Assembly (NCBI GenBank): GCA_913043225.1
Contig: CAJWLU010000001.1
Span: 96,001-160,000, forward strand
Source: an uncultured Acidobacteriota bacterium
Lineage (GTDB): Bacteria > Acidobacteriota > Vicinamibacteria > Vicinamibacterales > UBA8438
Direction: 5' to 3'
Length of the DNA stretch: 64,000 nucleotides
Position numbers: made by a program. Positions 45,001 through 51,000 of this stretch are shown piece by piece; positions within the stretch are counted from its first letter, which is position 1, and each line of letters starts with the position of its first letter.

Positions 45001-48000
45001 GCGCCGACGACGAACTGGGTGCGGCCAATCTCATCACGCTCGAAAAGCGCAAAGCTGCCGCGTCACTGGTCACAGAAGGTATCAGCATCTCGCTGGCGCA
45101 CGACGTCATCGAGGAGGACGCGGTCGATGGCGGTACCTACCTGGACCGGGAGGTGACCCGCGTGGGCCCGTCCGGGGCCGCCGACCGCTATCGATATACC
45201 GGCACCTATCACGGCACCATCCACAGCCACCTCGACTCGGTGGCCTGCCACGTGATGTACGACGGCCAAGGCTACAACGGCTACACGCAAGCGTCGATCG
45301 AGGAAGCCGGTCTATGCCCCCAGGGCAGCATCCACGCCTTGCGCGACGGCATCGTGACCCGTGGCGTGCTGTTCGACGCCACGCTCCTCCCAGGTAAGAC
45401 CACCCCAGAGGGCTGGGTGGTGCCCGGCACGGAGATCACCTGGGCCGACCTCGAGGAGTTAGAGCGGATCCAGGGCGTCAGGGTGTCGGAGGGAGACGTC
45501 ATCCTCCTCTACACCGGACGGTGGAAGCGTCGCGAGGCGCTCGGTGCCTGGCCCACCTCCGAGGGCGTGGCCGGATTCCAGGCCGACGTCGCCTACTTCC
45601 TGAAGGAACGGGGTGTAGCCTTCATCGGCCACGACATGTTCAACGATGTCTCGCCGCACGGGTTCCCGCCAGAAGTTGGCCTCCCGCTGCACCGGCTGGC
45701 GCTTGTCTCTCTGGGCGTGTCGATCTTCGACAACCTCGACTTTGAGCGGCTCGCGGAGAAAGCGCGACAACTCGGGCGCTACGAGTTCATGTTCACCGCT
45801 GCGCCGCTGCGGATCCGAGGTGGCATGGGGTCGCCGCTTAACCCGATTGCCACATTTTGACGGGGTCGCGGCGGCGGTTCGCACGATAATTAGCCATTCC
45901 GTTTCCGCTGAGCTCATTTGGCGAGGAGGTGCTCGATGTCGTACCTGAAGCAGTTCGGACCCATGCCGGCGCTCACGCTGCTGGCGATTGCGGCGGCGTG
46001 CGGCGGCGGGTCTGGACCAACGGAAGCTCCGGCCGAGGCTCAGGCTGGCTCCACGGCACCAGGCATGAACGGGCCTCAGGTGCCGATGTTCGCCGTCGAC
46101 CCGCTCTGGCCGAAGCCGCTGCCGAACCACTGGCTGCTCGGCTCCACCATCGGGGTGGACGTGGACGCCCAGGATCACGTCTGGATCGTGCACCGCGGCA
46201 ACCTGGCCAACAACGAGACGCCAGTACTGGCCGAGCCACCCTTCGCCGAGGAGTGCTGCCGGCCGGCACCGCCAGTCCTCGAATACGATCCCGAGGGCAA
46301 CCTCGTCGGCCACTGGGGCGGCCCGGGCGACGGCTACGACTGGCCGATCTCGAACCACGGCATCACCGTGGACCACATGGACAACGTGTGGATCGGGGGA
46401 AACGGCGGCGGCGACAGCCACGCGCTGAAGTTCAGCCGAAGCGGTCAGTTCCTACTGCAGATCGGCGTGGCCGGACGCCCGGTCGACAGCCTCAGCACCA
46501 ACAGCTATGGACGGATCGCCAAGATCGCTGTCGACCCGGAGGAGAACGAGATCTACTTCGCCGATGGCTATGGAAACCGCCGCGTGGCGGTAGTCGACGC
46601 CGACTCAGGTGAGCTGAAGCGGTTCTGGGGCGCCTACGGCAACGAACCGGACGACGACTACAACGAACGGTATGTCCCGGGCGGCGAGAACCTGCAGCAG
46701 TTCCTCAGTCCGGTGCACTGCGCCGAAGTATCGGCCGACGGGCTGATCTACGTCTGCGACCGCGCCCACGACCGGATCCAGGTCTTCCAGAAGGACGGCA
46801 CCTACGTGGACGAAATGCTGGTGATGCCCAACACCACCGGCTCTGGCGCCGCCTGGGACCTTGACTTCTCACACGACGCCGACCAGGCGTTCATGTATCT
46901 GGCCGACGGAGTGAACCAGCGGGTGCACATCATCGACCGGATGACCCTCGAGGTGGCAACCAGCTTCGGTGACGGCGGACGCCAGCCGGGTCAGTTCTTC
47001 GGCACCCACAGCATCGCCGTCGACTCGCAGGGCAACATCTACACAACCGAGACCTACGAAGGAAAACGGGTCCAGAAGTTCACCTTCATGGGCATGGGTC
47101 CGGTGCCGAGCGAGTATCAAGGCGTGGTGTGGCCGAAATAGACGCGACCGAAAGTATGCCTGTCGGCTTACGGCTCTGGGCTTCAGGCTTTGAGCCGCGC
47201 GAGGTCAGGGACTGTCGCTTGCCTCTTGCACCCTGGCACCAATGAGGAGATTCGTCATCCCGTAGTTGCCTTCGTGGCAGGCGTACTCGAAGAGCGGCGC
47301 GTTGGTCCGCTTCATGGGAATGGTGGCGGTGAACGACGCCACGAACGTCTTAGGGTCGTCTACGGTGAACTGATACATCAAAGTGTCGTCGTCCACCCGG
47401 GTGAACCGCTCGACCAAGTCGAGCGTGGTCCCTGAACCGTAGCTCGAGACGATGGTGTAGAAGCTGCCGGTCTTGTCCGTGTAGCCAGTACTCTCAACCA
47501 CCAAGGTGTCCCCCTCCCAGCGTCCACGTCCGTCGCCCATCCACTGCCGCATGTGGTCCGGGAGCGGTTGACGTCCATCGAGCGGCACGATCCTGGCCTC
47601 GTGAATCATCTCGCTGACGATCACCACATGATCCTCGGTCTGAAACAGCTGCACGTTGTTGTTGTAGGCGCTCGGCAACATCGGCGGTCCCGAGTTGAAC
47701 CCGAGCATGCAGCGCTCCGACAACCCCAGGTCCTCGGGGCCATGCGCGGGTGACCCGACCAACACCCGTCCACGCACGGGCCGCAGCCCGTTCTCTCGTT
47801 GCGCAGTCATCCAGGCCTGAGCCTCAGGTGTCAGAGCCGGGATCCGCCCGTCTGGAGGATCGACAATGAGCGAAGTCCGCATGTCGTCGGTCAGGTCGTT
47901 GCCCCAGTCCCACCAGAAATCGTTGTAGGCCCGCTCTACGTCGCGCGCCGCCCCTCCGTCGCGACGGTCGGCGTTCCTGCCCTCGATCGCCTGCTGCTGG

Positions 48001-51000
48001 AACACAGCCGCCTCCTCGGGAGTCAACGTCGCCTTGTCGAGACCCGTCGGCCGTTCAAGCGGGGTGATGGTCCGAAAATCCCAGACCCCATTCAGGTCGG
48101 GCATCCCCCAGGACGTGCGGGGTACAACGTCCTGCGCTCCCGCCACGCTCGCCAACACCAGCAACACCGCCGCACAGATTCCCAATCGCACCATGACCAC
48201 CTCCGCTAAAGACAGCGACGCCGCCAGGTTCAGTCCTCAAACAGCGCAAGATCGACCGCCTGGGCCATCACCCGATAGCCCTCGTCGCTTGGATGCAGCC
48301 AGTCGCCCGACTGATATGACTCGACCATCTTGCTAGGTGCTGCCGCATCCCTCACCGCGGCGTCGAAGTCGATCACCCCGTCATAGACACCGGACGTGCG
48401 CATCCACTCGTTGAAGGCCTGCCGCTTCTTCTCACCAATCGGACGGAAGTAAAACGCCCCCTCGAAGGGTGCGAGCGTGCCACCGTAGATCTTCAGACCG
48501 CGCGCATGGGCCCGCTCGACCAATTCGGTGTGACCCGCGACGATCTCCTCCACCGTCGGCGTCTCCGACTCGAACGCCATCCCGATGTCATTAGTTGACT
48601 CCAGCACGATGACGTGTGTCACGCCAGGCTGTGACAGCACATCGCGGTCGAAGCGCTTCAGAGCGGCTGGACCAAACTGGGCGTTCGGGTTCGCCAGCGG
48701 CGCATTGGCGTTGCCCAGCAACTGCGCGAGGCCGGCGTTATCGCTGAGCACCCGGTTCCCGGCGATTCCCAGATTCAACACCGCTGGCGGTGTGTTGCCG
48801 GGACGCGCGATGAGCCGCCGGGCCAGGAAGTCTGGCCAGCGGCTGTTGGTGTCTGGTGTCGAGGCCGTGCCATCGGTGATCGAGTCGCCGAGGGCAACGA
48901 TGACCGGTGTCCCGGCGGCAGCCTCCACCTCGACCCGGGACAAATAGAACCAGTTCTGGAAGGTACGATCGACCGGCAGGGTACTGGCGCCCGCATGGTT
49001 CCCAGCCTTGGACAGGTAGTTGGTGGTGAGACCGGTTCCATGGACCGTCGCTCCACTCGGATCGGAGGTCGGAATTCCCGGCAGATACAGGTCGACCGCC
49101 AGGTCGCCGAGCGCCGGGACATCGAGCTCCACCGGATCACTGATGGCGACGTCGCCCGGCGGCACGGCAGTCGTGGGCTGACCGCCAAACTGGAGCGTCC
49201 GGGACGTTCCGGACACTAGCGCCGCTCCATCCGCCCGAAGCGCGACCTGTGCGGCGCCGATCTCCAGCGGCTGGCTCCCGAAGACGTTGGTGATGACCAC
49301 CCTCACTGCGGCTCCGCCGATACTAGTGCGCACGATTTGGCGCAATGTCTGCCCGTCGATCTCCATCTGGGCCGGTCCGGGTCTGGCTGGCGGAGTTCCG
49401 TCGGCTGGCGGTAGCGCCACCGGCGCGGTGGCCCAGGTACCTACCCACGCGGTCCCCTGCGCCTCCGCAGCGACGGGCTGCAGCCCCACCACAGCCACGA
49501 CAGCAACCGCCAGCGCCAATCGAGAACACCGTGAAGCGACTTTTCGGCTCAGCATCGGTCTACTCCCTCATCTACGCTCAGGCTGGCGTCTTCTGTCCAA
49601 GGACGCCGGGTGAAGGTCCTGCGTTGCTCCAACTTCGGCGAAACGAAATACGTCGGCTTGTTCTTCCTGTACAGAATAAGGGGACGGAGCCTGCACCCCG
49701 TCCCCTTATTTTCCCAGCATGACAGTGGTCCTGATCTGTAGCAAATTCCAGCCATGAACACCCCTCTCAACCAGAAAACGTCATCTGGCTGGATGGTGAT
49801 GCGCCCCGGCTTTCTCCAGCTCACCAGCGGCCGGTCGGTGGGCCTTGTAGGTGCGGGCAGCGTCGGGCGTATCTTCAAGGGGCGTCTGGCCCGGGTCCCC
49901 CCGGTATCGTAAGCTCGGATCTTAGTGGATACCTGCCGCTTCGGCCTGCTGCGTCGCCTCCTCGACCCCGTAACGGACGTACGCCTCGCCCTCGACGGTC
50001 ACCGTCGGGCCGACGGCCGCCCAGAGGTACAATCCTGAGGTTTCGGAGACGACAGATGAGCAAACACATCGCCGCATGCCTGACTTTCAGCCTCGCCTTG
50101 ACGGCTGCCGACCAGACCCACGCCCAGCAGGGGGCGCCTGACGGCGAGTGGCCGACCTACGGCGGTGACCTGGGGCATACCCGCTATTCCGCCCTCGACC
50201 AGATCGACGCCGAGAACTTCAACGAGCTCGAACTGGCCTGGCAATTCAGCACCGAGAACCTGGGCCCTGGCCCCGAGTACATCTTCCAGTCAACACCGCT
50301 CATGGTCGACGACGTGCTCTATAGCACCGGTGGTACGCGACGCGCCGTGGTCGCCCTCGACGCCGGCACTGGGGAGTTGTTGTGGCTCCACCGGCTCAAC
50401 GAAGGGGAGCGCGGGGCCAGCGCCCCTCGGCGGCTGTCAGGACGAGGACTGACCCACTGGGATGACGGCGGCGACGGGGTCGTCTTCTATGTCACACCTG
50501 GCTACCAGCTCATCGGACTGAACGCCCAGACCGGGCGCCGGCTGGCCGGATTCGGCGAGAACGGACTGGTCGATCTCAAGCAGAACATGGATCAGGACCT
50601 GGGCCCGCTCGCCGAGGTGGGGCTGCACGCGGCCCCGATCATCGCCGACGGCGTCATCGTGATCGGCGCGGCCCATTTGGCGGGGGTAGCGCCGACGACC
50701 AAGGAGAAGCCGAAGGGTCACATCCGCGGCTATGACGCCCGGACGGGCGAGCGGAAGTGGATCTTCCACACGATCCCCGACGCCGACGAGTTCGGCAACG
50801 AGAGCTGGGGTGCCGACTCCTGGCGTTTTACCGGCTACACCGGCGTCTGGGGCCAGATGACCATGGACCCCGAGCTGGGCTACGTCTACCTGCCGGTGGA
50901 GATGCCGACCGGCGACCTGTATGGGGGCCACCGGCCGGGCGACAACCTGTTCGCTGACAGTATCGTGGCGCTCGACATCCAGACGGGCGAGCGCGTCTGG

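Follow-up and report, generated by a model that had tools for sequence, protein, structure and literature searches.

The locus

The window, a stretch of 64,000 nucleotides from an uncultured Acidobacteriota bacterium, carries two members of one protein family. The one analyzed here, P0001, was the best match of the search that defined the 88-member family (jackhmmer, six-frame ORFs). The first-pass annotation had placed this gene at 47205..48194, which agrees with an ATG start at 48194 (329 aa); the open reading frame itself runs on to a GTG at 48200.

45918..47141, plus strand: NHL-repeat beta-propeller protein, 407 aa (PF01436; member of a 23-copy cluster)
47205..48200, minus strand: family gene P0001, 331 aa from GTG 48200, stop codon included (ORF list and translation)
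48230..49555, minus strand: SGNH/GDSL hydrolase, 441 aa (Pfam PF13472, 7.5e-27)
50056..52032, plus strand: PQQ dehydrogenase, 658 aa (PF01011, 3.9e-183; member of an 84-gene cluster)
27389..28498, minus strand: second family member in the window, 369 aa (jackhmmer match C1_123389_124498)

The SGNH/GDSL gene lies directly upstream of P0001 on the same strand, with a gap of 29 bp, and is its likely operon partner; an SGNH gene is paired with a family gene also at two loci of other genomes, L044, which carries a 79% orthologue of P0001, and L123. The NHL-repeat gene is the convergent neighbour, and the PQQ dehydrogenase gene, divergent to the SGNH gene, is two genes away from P0001. The Pfam scan assigned no family to the second member. 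Dozens of RNA-library contigs from three studies match the P0001 gene, at 47243-47298 only.

A large and old family

The first-pass annotation described the largest gene family of the 3.85-Mb genome, 88 genes strong and undescribed, and both statements hold. The jackhmmer search, which took in 8,271 six-frame ORFs with a minimum length of 120 aa, recovered 88 members, and a homologue search across genomes gave 89 family matches in the source genome. Among 3,144 genes, called independently of the earlier work, the family formed the largest blastp cluster (89), followed by the PQQ dehydrogenases of PF01011 (84). P0001 has no Pfam and no NCBIfam family at E<=10; when 107 members were each compared to Pfam at E<=1, no family appeared in more than 2 of the 107, these scans covering 4 of the 88 paralogues and 106 homologues. 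Against the PDB sequences, the best match of P0001 was at E 1.2 and that of the 107-member profile at E 0.36. These comparisons support the conclusion that the family matches no described one.

Judging by sequence divergence, the expansion is old and its paralogues have been retained, because the median identity to the nearest paralogue is 54%, the highest value being 78%, and orthologues of P0001 (70-79% identity) occur in at least six other genera. The median pairwise identity among paralogues is 38%. Each of the 12 genomes sampled from the same GTDB family shares the expansion, and further expansions are seen in Vicinamibacterales of soil or sediment, in Thermoanaerobaculia and in Gammaproteobacteria. 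Its earlier attribution to marine Acidobacteriota was thus too narrow: the same family has multiplied in other bacterial groups.

Domain architecture and conserved residues

The features of P0001 are listed below; residues are numbered as in this protein, that is, the first-pass numbers plus 3.

48135..48200, minus strand: Sec signal peptide, residues 1-22, cleavage AGA/QD (alignment of 88 paralogues; AF2 helix 2-18)
48081..48089, minus strand: G38-x-W40, start of the first barrel strand (conservation counts; AF2 strand 38-41)
47661..48068, minus strand: about 135 residues (45-180) inserted between the first barrel strand and the remainder (AF2 secondary structure, pLDDT, conservation)
47709..47714, minus strand: R163-C164 (R in 83 of 88, C in 87 of 88)
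47304..47657, minus strand: barrel core, residues 182-299, eight strands (AF2 strands, conservation counts, calycin matches)
47424..47480, minus strand: hypervariable loop with indels, residues 241-259 (column entropies 2.1-3.7 bits)
47265..47288, minus strand: E305-Y-A-C308-H309-E310-G-N312, after the last strand (conservation counts)

In accord with the earlier description of the proteins as secreted, the N-terminal alignment places a signal peptide ending AxA/Q in 82 of the 88 paralogues; Sec export is a well-supported prediction, and the proteins are probably located in the periplasm. At the start of the barrel, G38 is found in 86 of 88 paralogues and position 40 is W in 72, Y in 9 and F in 7. 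The insertion contains TPLERP and SLIVDPPDGRxP motifs and three helices, with residues 144-149 disordered in the AF2 model. The barrel core bears Q187, E197, H200, R203, W228, E264, R265, Y276 and D282. Variation is concentrated in two hypervariable loops, at about 140-160 and 241-259, and residues 247-253 of the latter are found in just 26-49 of the 88 paralogues.

Thirteen residues (R163, C164, E197, R203, G222, E264, R265, D282, E305, C308, H309, E310 and N312) are each conserved in at least 83 of the 88 paralogues, among them every position of the R-C, E-R and E-x-x-C-H-E-x-N elements that had been reported as invariant. Within the C-terminal motif, which proved workable as a search pattern, the counts are 85 for E305, 88 for C308, 83 for H309, 86 for E310 and 83 for N312, with C-H-E-x-N complete in 83 paralogues; the only well conserved histidines are H200 (71/88) and H309 (83/88). 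C164, one half of a conserved Cys pair, is invariant in the long and short subtypes, and a C164-C308 disulfide probably ties the C-terminal segment to the insertion. The CxxCH motif of c-type cytochromes is not present: E-Y-A-C-H has a single Cys, and the short subtype has C-V.

Despite the low median identity, 58 of the 88 paralogues share 16 identical residues, most of them polar or charged. Taken together with the concentration of variation in two loops, this set fits a fixed reaction, cofactor or metal site better than it fits 88 differently tuned carriers. The earlier proposal that each paralogue is a passive carrier tuned to another ligand is, accordingly, not borne out. The family contains no recognized catalytic motif of known enzyme families, and no cofactor or metal is predicted for it. 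The conserved charged residues could alternatively form buried salt bridges or a partner-binding surface.

The predicted fold

The AF2 model built from 107 rows (pLDDT 87.3, pTM 0.85) has about ten strands. Foldseek gave 13 PDB matches at E<=1e-3, all of the CRBP/FABP type (best 2.4e-4). Among 48,161 chains compared by VIA-align, the best were CRBP4 (6at8; Z 8.3, 116 residues, rmsd 3.2), nanoKAZ (8.2) and LBP-8 (7.7), with the THAP4 nitrobindin at 6.4, OlmO spirocyclase at 6.0 and L-PGDS at 4.2; only 2 chains reached Z>=8. These scores are middling, and a best Z of 7-8 is typical of unmatched models. The listed rows with Z>=5 are nearly all calycins (FABP, nitrobindin, lipocalin, CpeS) or other small barrels, and the structural matches cover about 116-125 residues of P0001, spread across 25..306. 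Calycins begin strand A with a G-x-W, packed on a basic residue of the C-terminal strand. The antiparallel up-and-down barrel of 8-10 strands that defines them is seen in P0001, in a predicted model and with middling scores. A calycin-like barrel core, as the first reading had it, is well supported by the modelling; the barrel is approximately ten-stranded and opens with the G-x-W strand.

Most of the nearest structural matches are carriers (FABP, CRBP, lipocalins). A periplasmic ligand carrier is the leading alternative, although we consider it somewhat less likely than an enzyme or metal-site module. Its barrel would bind substrates or products of hydrophobic or amphiphilic character, or a cofactor, and pass them to neighbouring PQQ dehydrogenases and hydrolases, with a ligand that differs by paralogue. 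Lipid carriers, both intracellular and extracellular, are the family's best matches in fold, and the G-x-W opening strand agrees with this reading. FABPs bind carboxylates through an Arg-Arg-Tyr clamp, which R203, R265 and Y276 could form, the hypervariable loops could form a portal, and one homologue bears a Lipocalin_5 domain. However, identity of 16 mostly polar residues is far above the conservation usual in carriers and the opposite of what ligand-tuned pockets would show.

Association with PQQ dehydrogenases

Among 150 direct non-family neighbours of family genes, 17 are PQQ dehydrogenases compared to 4.1 expected, and 16 family genes have one next door, compared to 4.7 on average, and never more than 12, in 500 random draws. 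The fourfold excess reported before is thus real. At +-1, the enrichment beside PQQ dehydrogenases is 3.8x for the family as opposed to 1.2x for PQQ_2, 0.8x for DUF1552, 0.9x for NHL, 1.4x for ABC, and 0 for PSCyt/DUF1592 and beta-lactamase, which shows that this is no general island effect. In five unrelated genomes, match counts for the family and for PQQ dehydrogenases also increase in parallel (31/32, 40/32, 8/14, 5/7 and 66/35). Both the specific adjacency and the parallel increase favour the carrier.

Nevertheless, the link is loose, neither obligate nor partner-specific. PQQ-adjacent paralogues do not form a clade but are scattered on the tree (15 Fitch changes vs 14.8 in shuffles); the relative G018 combines at least 38 matches to PQQ dehydrogenases with 3 family matches, and G017 and G020 have 8-9 PQQ dehydrogenases each and no family matches, all of which count against the carrier. 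A Pseudohongiella genome shows adjacency close to the chance level (2 of 30 within 1 kb vs 0.95 at random). The earlier suggestion that the family serves the PQQ dehydrogenases stands as far as the enrichment goes, and fails as a statement of obligate or specific partnership, given also the hydrolase partners described below.

The same adjacency has a bearing on trafficking, in which the family would hold PQQ, Ca/lanthanide or another metal for apo-dehydrogenases in a host that may not make PQQ. In the 96%-complete genome, pqqC was not found and no pqqE match exceeded the cut-off; the absence of pqqC is weak evidence because the control detected it in 0 of 14 control genomes. The many conserved carboxylates, Asn and Arg, and a metal-binder-like partner (DUF6152, below), would suit this role. 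We nonetheless regard it as improbable, since a single cofactor would hardly call for 88 old, diverged copies, the adjacency is loose, and hydrolase partners need no PQQ.

Hydrolase partners and fusions

Same-strand neighbours within 120 bp include genes for SGNH, tannase, esterase, PETase-like, alpha/beta-hydrolase, amidohydrolase, amidase, MBL, PQQ dehydrogenase and Mo-oxidoreductase proteins. In other genomes, operon-like partners are mainly hydrolases. Around the paralogues, 32 upstream and 37 downstream operon-like partners belong to dozens of clusters. SGNH and family parts form single polypeptides in P0132 and P0063. Of the three VOC-fused members reported earlier, Pfam bears out two, and all three start with a signal peptide. 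Enzyme fusions fit a binding module and a catalytic module equally.

The diversity of the partners, almost always exported enzymes nonetheless, could point to a non-catalytic accessory subunit, adaptor or steric chaperone that binds the neighbour-encoded enzyme or a common envelope component and stabilizes, localizes or activates it. The SGNH and VOC fusions are compatible with such a role, a conserved surface could touch one common partner, and tandem pairs of short and long family genes, present at some loci, suggest heteromers. Yet many paralogues lack a consistent neighbour, as the dozens of partner clusters illustrate, and adaptation to many enzymes should vary more than two loops; we hold this to be unlikely, if somewhat less so than trafficking.

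The short subtype and DUF6152

In the source genome, 5 of the 6 DUF6152 (PF19649) copies lie beside a family gene, and the five short-type members pair one to one with DUF6152 genes. The pairing recurs in at least 9 of 80 loci of other orders and phyla and in the cultured Novosphingobium humi; of the 66 family matches of a Rariloculaceae genome, 59 are within 1.5 kb of a DUF6152 gene (random mean 5.0). The pair is encoded in members of the Acidobacteriota, Gammaproteobacteria and Alphaproteobacteria. The short type lacks H200, H309 (replaced by V) and N312 and keeps the Cys pair. DUF6152 has an invariant H-H at its predicted mature N-terminus, plus D34, N-P-H and E74, and from this pattern looks like a metal binder; its fold is an OB fold (Z 8.7 to SSB/PriB, a match of geometry alone). 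PF13801, which we take to be the Metal_resist or ZraP-CpxP-like family, is present in 9 of 35 longer DUF6152 proteins. Most apparent fusions of DUF6152 with the family retain the DUF6152 signal peptide, and so may be merged gene calls. DUF6152 has no described function, and its name was not found in a literature search. The carrier leaves this pairing unexplained.

A model of family function

Altogether, the earlier observation is confirmed and its interpretation is only partly supported. We tentatively favour a periplasmic enzyme or metal-site module over a carrier. Under this model, each paralogue would hold the same reaction centre, a metal, cofactor or acid-base site that might comprise Q187, E197, H200, R203, E264, R265, Y276, D282, E305, H309, E310 and N312, and substrate preference would depend on the two hypervariable loops. 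In that case, the paralogues would be periplasmic catalytic modules for small organic compounds, working with exported hydrolases encoded nearby (SGNH, esterases, amidohydrolases, MBL) and with PQQ dehydrogenases. As the sequence patterns suggest, DUF6152 may supply or deliver in trans something that the long type carries within itself.

Comparison with known systems

FABPs and CRBPs provide the best structural matches and share the ten-stranded up-and-down barrel. FABPs are cytosolic proteins of about 130 aa with a helix-turn-helix lid between strands A and B, whereas the family protein is exported, 2.5 times longer and without a sequence or Pfam match; at the place of the helix-turn-helix it has the 135-residue insertion, and it adds the Cys pair and a large polar constellation. 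The FABP profile PF00061 matches 0 of 107 members at E<=1. Assignment of P0001 to the FABP class was rejected on its 331 aa, signal peptide and insertion after strand 1.

Nitrobindin, the THAP4 C-terminal domain and Rv2717c are haem-binding ten-stranded barrels, and in nitrobindins a proximal His within the barrel ligates haem b. The family resembles them in the barrel (Z 6.4-5.9, 122-129 residues; 6.4-6.1 for nitrobindin) and has a conserved His, H309, but rmsd is 4.3-4.8, the scores are below those of FABPs, and there is no Pfam match (DUF1794); moreover, H309 comes after the final strand, with V in its place in the short subtype, and no evidence of haem was found. Bacterial lipocalins are exported barrels with a G-x-W first strand, and the homologue P0225 has a Lipocalin_5 (PF13924) domain fused C-terminally, although no lipocalin model of Pfam matches any of the 107 members (E<=1). 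DUF6152 differs in fold and is encoded by a gene of its own that neighbours the short subtype but does not adjoin P0001, which has no match to the DUF6152 profile. Finally, Oplophorus luciferase nanoKAZ, OlmO spirocyclase and lipocalin-type prostaglandin D synthase have no sequence relation to the family and no identified catalytic residues in common with it, but they share its barrel and indicate that this fold can support catalysis.

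Results

A large family of exported calycin-like proteins

The window gene P0001 belongs to a very large, old family of exported, calycin-like proteins, here the barrel family, for which we found no name, Pfam model or paper. Its frame was chosen by codon statistics trained on the whole genome (G000), and its surroundings are as follows.

Features of the window around P0001
45918..47141, convergent with P0001: NHL-repeat propeller
47205..48200, minus strand: barrel-family gene P0001, 331 codons, GTG start; an alternative ATG at 48194 gives 329 aa
48230..49555, minus strand, as P0001: SGNH/GDSL hydrolase, 441 aa (PF13472, 7.5e-27); P0001 starts 29 bp downstream
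50056..52032, two genes from P0001: PQQ dehydrogenase, 658 aa (PF01011, 3.9e-183)
52036..53703, minus strand: ankyrin-repeat gene of a 20-copy family, beside the DUF1552/PSCyt pair
53714..55060, minus strand: DUF1552 gene, one of 26 in the genome, with a 4-bp overlap with the PSCyt/DUF1592 gene
55057..57498, minus strand: PSCyt/DUF1592-1588-1585-1587-1595 gene, one of 32 in the genome

P0001 matches no Pfam family and no NCBIfam family, each up to E ≤ 10. Against the PDB, neither its sequence (best E 1.2) nor a 107-row profile (best E 0.36) found a relative, and Pfam scans of 107 barrel-family members (E ≤ 1) returned no family for more than 2 of them. Among the matches listed for PQQ in Vicinamibacterales and Acidobacteriota, for lipocalins, for calycins and for Rariloculaceae, judged by title or listing, no paper on the family was found, in keeping with its description as undescribed in the first-pass annotation.

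A jackhmmer search of 8,271 six-frame ORFs of at least 120 aa from the genome, with P0001 as the query, converged on 88 members, and a genome-wide protein search gave 89 matches. When our own gene calls (3,144 genes, 90.6% coding) were clustered by all-against-all blastp, the barrel family formed the largest cluster (89 genes, about 2.8% of all genes), followed by the PF01011 PQQ dehydrogenases (84), the PQQ_2/BamB-like propellers (35), PSCyt/DUF1592 (32) with DUF1552 (26), ABC ATPases (32) and NHL proteins (23). The family size first proposed, 88 genes and the largest in the genome, is thus reproduced independently. Identity to the nearest paralogue ranges from 36 to 78% (median 54%), with a median of 38% over all pairs of the 88; the best paralogue of P0001 is 53-55% identical to it, and at least six further genera of its GTDB family have 70-79% orthologues. 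Because the paralogues have diverged and orthologues are closer than paralogues, the expansion is old and each paralogue has been kept.

A Sec signal peptide with an AxA|Q end is present in 82 of the 88 members. The same end is found here on exported proteins outside the family (SGNH, PQQ dehydrogenase, cyclase), so a Gln at the mature N-terminus characterises the organism, and we rejected it as a feature specific to the family. Three members (574 aa), all starting with a signal peptide, carry an N-terminal VOC/glyoxalase domain, as had been claimed; two of them were scanned by Pfam. Further domain combinations were seen in homologues: a squalene-hopene-cyclase-like repeat precedes the barrel-family domain in P0122 (714 aa), a Lipocalin_5 domain lies C-terminal of it in P0225 (440 aa), and in P0271 (427 aa) a partial domain is followed by an OMP beta-barrel domain.

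Predicted fold

The AlphaFold2 model of P0001 (107-row alignment; pLDDT 87.3, pTM 0.85) places a conserved P-D-L-x-G-x-W before a strand at 38-41, followed by an inserted region of some 135 residues that contains three helices and in which residues 144-149 are disordered, and then by eight strands (182-299), the segment E-Y-A-C-H-E-G-N and a C-terminal helix. Foldseek against the PDB returned only CRBP/FABP-type barrels (13 at E ≤ 1e-3, best 2.4e-4, target TM 0.45-0.53). The top VIA-align matches among 48,161 chains were CRBP4 (Z 8.3, 116 aligned, rmsd 3.2), nanoKAZ (8.2) and LBP-8 (7.7), with THAP4 nitrobindin (6.4), OlmO (6.0), Rv2717c (5.9) and CpeS (5.7) below them; two chains only reached Z ≥ 8. 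The G and W of G-x-W, which matches the lipocalin strand-A signature, are kept in 86 and 72 of the 88 paralogues, respectively. The match list is consistently calycin and agrees with the calycin-like core predicted earlier; the likeness is structural and the scores are middling. Since these scores fall in the range that is common for unmatched models in this tool, we treat the likeness as resemblance and not as established homology. In the ESM Atlas, most clusters were unnamed and the named ones follow co-occurrence (Glyoxalase, in 22% of members, and DUF6152); DUF3471 (0.79) is a weak lead.

Conservation

At least 85% conservation was found at 45 positions among the 88 paralogues, and 58 of the 88 are identical at all 16 key positions (R163, C164, Q187, E197, H200, R203, W228, E264, R265, Y276, D282, E305, C308, H309, E310 and N312, in P0001 numbering). 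C-H-E-x-N is present in 83 of the 88. Variation is centred on region 140-160 and on loop 241-259, within which residues 247-253 exist in only 26-49 of the 88 members. At a median identity of 38%, this is the pattern of a putative fixed site with variable recognition loops.

Neighbouring genes

The window's pair of SGNH hydrolase and barrel-family genes is kept at locus L044 together with a 79% orthologue of P0001, and in the homologues P0132 and P0063 the two domains form one polypeptide, the family part of which lacks a signal peptide. Operon-like pairing with exported hydrolases is frequent. In other taxa, same-strand partners within 120 bp are mainly exported hydrolases, namely SGNH proteins (L044, L123), a tannase, an esterase, a PETase-like protein, alpha/beta-hydrolases, an amidohydrolase, an amidase and MBL; the non-hydrolase partners include a PQQ dehydrogenase, NHL, a cyclase and a molybdopterin oxidoreductase.

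RNA-library contigs partly cover P0001 (329 nt, 10 differences) and the SGNH gene, although they may stem from DNA carry-over, and none of the matching contigs spans both. The stretch 47243..47298, which encodes E-Y-A-C-H-E-G-N, is the sole match (45-55 nt) of dozens of RNA-library contigs from three studies; these diverge on both sides of it, indicating that many other barrel-family members are present in those libraries. On the far side of the PQQ dehydrogenase, the arrangement of an ankyrin-repeat gene beside DUF1552/PSCyt was seen again at three foreign loci (L076, L111, L112).

Association with PQQ dehydrogenases

The family had been proposed to serve the PQQ dehydrogenases, on the basis of gene adjacency. 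PQQ dehydrogenases make up 17 of its 150 distinct non-family direct neighbours (4.1 expected); 16 barrel-family genes adjoin one (random mean 4.7, maximum 12 in 500 draws), and 39 of the 84 PQQ dehydrogenases have a barrel-family gene within three genes (10.7 expected). A control that the first-pass annotation lacked, the frequency of other large families beside PQQ dehydrogenases, shows no like enrichment (PQQ_2 1.2x, DUF1552 0.8x, NHL 0.9x, ABC 1.4x; PSCyt/DUF1592 and beta-lactamase, none observed), and therefore the link exceeds a general island effect. MBL and GSDH reach about 4.5x, with n=3 each.

The co-location is thus genuine, but it is loose. PQQ dehydrogenases account for only seven of the operon-like partners (2 of 32 upstream, 5 of 37 downstream), which as a whole belong to dozens of clusters. 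The PQQ-adjacent paralogues are scattered on the family tree (Fitch 15 versus 14.8 in 1,000 shuffles), and a dedicated PQQ-adjacent subfamily was accordingly rejected. Among the compared genomes, the relative G018 has at least 38 PQQ dehydrogenase matches and 3 barrel-family matches, and G017 and G020 have 9 and 8 PQQ dehydrogenases with zero barrel-family matches. Universal adjacency is unsupported in a Pseudohongiella genome, where 2 of 30 barrel-family genes lie within 1 kb of a PQQ dehydrogenase (random 0.95). In raw counts, a PQQ dehydrogenase occurs within 6 kb at 29 of 80 foreign loci (1 of 16 gammaproteobacterial versus 28 of 64 others). At the genome level, family and PQQ match counts rise jointly (31/32, 40/32, 8/14, 5/7 and 66/35).

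Alongside its 84 PQQ dehydrogenase genes, pqqC was not found in this 96%-complete genome, and no pqqE match passed the cut-off. PQQ auxotrophy is a possibility, weakly indicated because the control for pqqC was positive in 0 of 14 control genomes.

A short type paired with DUF6152

The five lowest-scoring paralogues of the genome (255-320 aa) form a short type with an N-terminal motif G-I-W-Q...W-D and with L-E-F-K-C-V-E in place of the E-Y-A-C-H-E-G-N of the long type; H309 and N312 are absent from them, as is H200 from most. The pairing of this subtype with DUF6152 (PF19649) is tight: the five genes correspond one-to-one to five of the six DUF6152 genes of the genome, with a long-type gene in between in two of the five pairs. 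The sixth DUF6152 match (G000:C10:88559-88819, minus strand; 72 bits, 279-aa open frame), where our gene caller favoured an opposite-strand ORF, has no adjoining barrel-family gene.

The module of short type, long type and DUF6152 occurs at no fewer than 9 of 80 loci, in Bryobacterales, Vicinamibacterales, Holophagales and Gammaproteobacteria, and also on a megaplasmid of the cultured Novosphingobium humi. In this alphaproteobacterium, DUF6152 is followed directly by a short-type gene (L124:4156-5576; NZ_CP103869.1, 517109-518529), an interval with no annotated feature in the PLSDB table; the plasmid collection gave three weak Novosphingobium matches, all without annotation. The gammaproteobacterial Ca. 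Rariloculaceae genome G171 (locus L062, 4.7 Mb) is a second, independent mass expansion, there of the two-gene module. It has about 100 DUF6152 matches (101; 104 candidates scored), 59 of its 66 barrel-family matches lie within 1.5 kb of DUF6152 (random mean 5.0, maximum 12), and 52 of 100 DUF6152 matches have a barrel-family match within that distance.

DUF6152 proteins have a signal peptide ending in AxA, followed at once by an invariant His-His; D34, N52-P53-H54, W71 and E74 are likewise invariant. The model (pLDDT 81.9) shows an OB fold that matches SSB/PriB in geometry only (Z 8.7), and 9 of 35 longer DUF6152 proteins carry PF13801, the Metal_resist / ZraP-CpxP-like family. Together, these features suggest that DUF6152 is a putative metal binder. 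Complex prediction for the short type (28-275, 16 rows) with DUF6152 (26-135, 25 rows), run twice without controls, gave ipSAE 0.00, which speaks neither for nor against binding. Apparent fusions of DUF6152 with the barrel family in 11 of the 35 longer proteins are for the most part probably merged gene calls, because they are singletons and retain a signal peptide inside the protein; P0305 and P0306 alone appear to be genuine.

Distribution and phylogeny

HMMER against 1.84 billion protein cluster representatives (clusters at 50% identity) found 13,761 barrel-family representatives at E ≤ 1e-3 and 5,877 at E ≤ 1e-10. Each of the 12 genomes sampled from the same GTDB family has 16-110 matches, against 0-6 in eight genomes of other families of the order, and the barrel family is present in 13 of 151 genomes of a phylum-wide sample. 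The named records, all from MAGs, belong to Vicinamibacterales, Bryobacterales, Holophagales, Terriglobia, Thermoanaerobaculia (Ca. Multivorans), Gammaproteobacteria (Pseudohongiella, Steroidobacter and Ca. Rariloculaceae) and Phenylobacterium; five genomes of such taxa hold 31, 40, 8, 5 and 66 matches. A contig (L059, CAMCRC010000007.1) from a MAG assigned to Klebsiella pneumoniae holds a 51%-identical member; to judge from where else the family occurs, the contig seems to be misbinned or the MAG mislabelled.

In a FastTree phylogeny of 192 members, clades made up of this genome alone contain at most 5 tips, and the 21 gammaproteobacterial tips are spread over 16 separate clades. P0001 and its 79% orthologue (support 0.997) are sister to two gammaproteobacterial MAG genes, L047 and L050 (0.84). 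The scattered tips and the mixed sister clade suggest that the paralogues are old and that genes have moved between phyla.

At least half of the window's sampled words occur in 15 marine or seawater metagenome DNA runs (13 without two possible source samples); the 19 runs holding window words come from 14 studies.

Discussion

In this widespread marine lineage no gene family is larger than the barrel family, and an annotation gap at about 2.8% of genes hides a large share of the periplasmic activity of these organisms. From the conservation pattern, we infer that the polar set would be a reaction, cofactor or metal site, with specificity residing in the variable loops; the same residues could instead form a network of structural salt bridges or a shared docking surface. 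The 16 polar-rich positions identical in 58 of the 88 members weigh against the earlier proposal that each paralogue is tuned to another ligand, as in carriers with 88 differently tuned pockets. Tentatively, we favour a set of periplasmic catalytic modules, with a carrier role not far behind. A role as adaptors appears improbable, and one as cofactor shuttles even more so.

If the proteins are catalytic modules, P0001 and its SGNH partner would, speculatively, act on esters or on the alcohols and acids formed from them, and these products might in turn be oxidised by PQQ dehydrogenases. As partners of PQQ dehydrogenases and esterases, such enzymes or cofactor modules would bear on how oligotrophs oxidise diverse dissolved organics.

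A more specific version, which we regard as a long shot, would make the family a novel type of metal-dependent periplasmic catalyst built on a calycin scaffold and multiplied independently in different lineages. The long type would be self-contained, with an internal His/carboxylate site (E197, H200, E305, H309, E310, N312). The short type, having lost the histidines, would be one half of an enzyme whose second component is the OB-fold DUF6152; the free His-His at the N-terminus of DUF6152 might provide a histidine-brace-like ligand set or act as a metal donor. Either form would have been multiplied repeatedly, to about 90-110 copies in Vicinamibacterales and about 100 DUF6152 in Rariloculaceae. 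Were this true, slow-growing marine and soil bacteria would gain a wide range of periplasmic reactions for refractory organic matter.

DUF6152 and the short type constitute a small, testable two-gene system that is present in cultured Novosphingobium. No paper naming DUF6152 was found in the literature. A preprint describes a "lanthanide cargo" protein, small and periplasmic, that reportedly lacks any conserved domain (bioRxiv 10.64898/2026.07.10.737718), and for this reason we do not equate DUF6152 with it.
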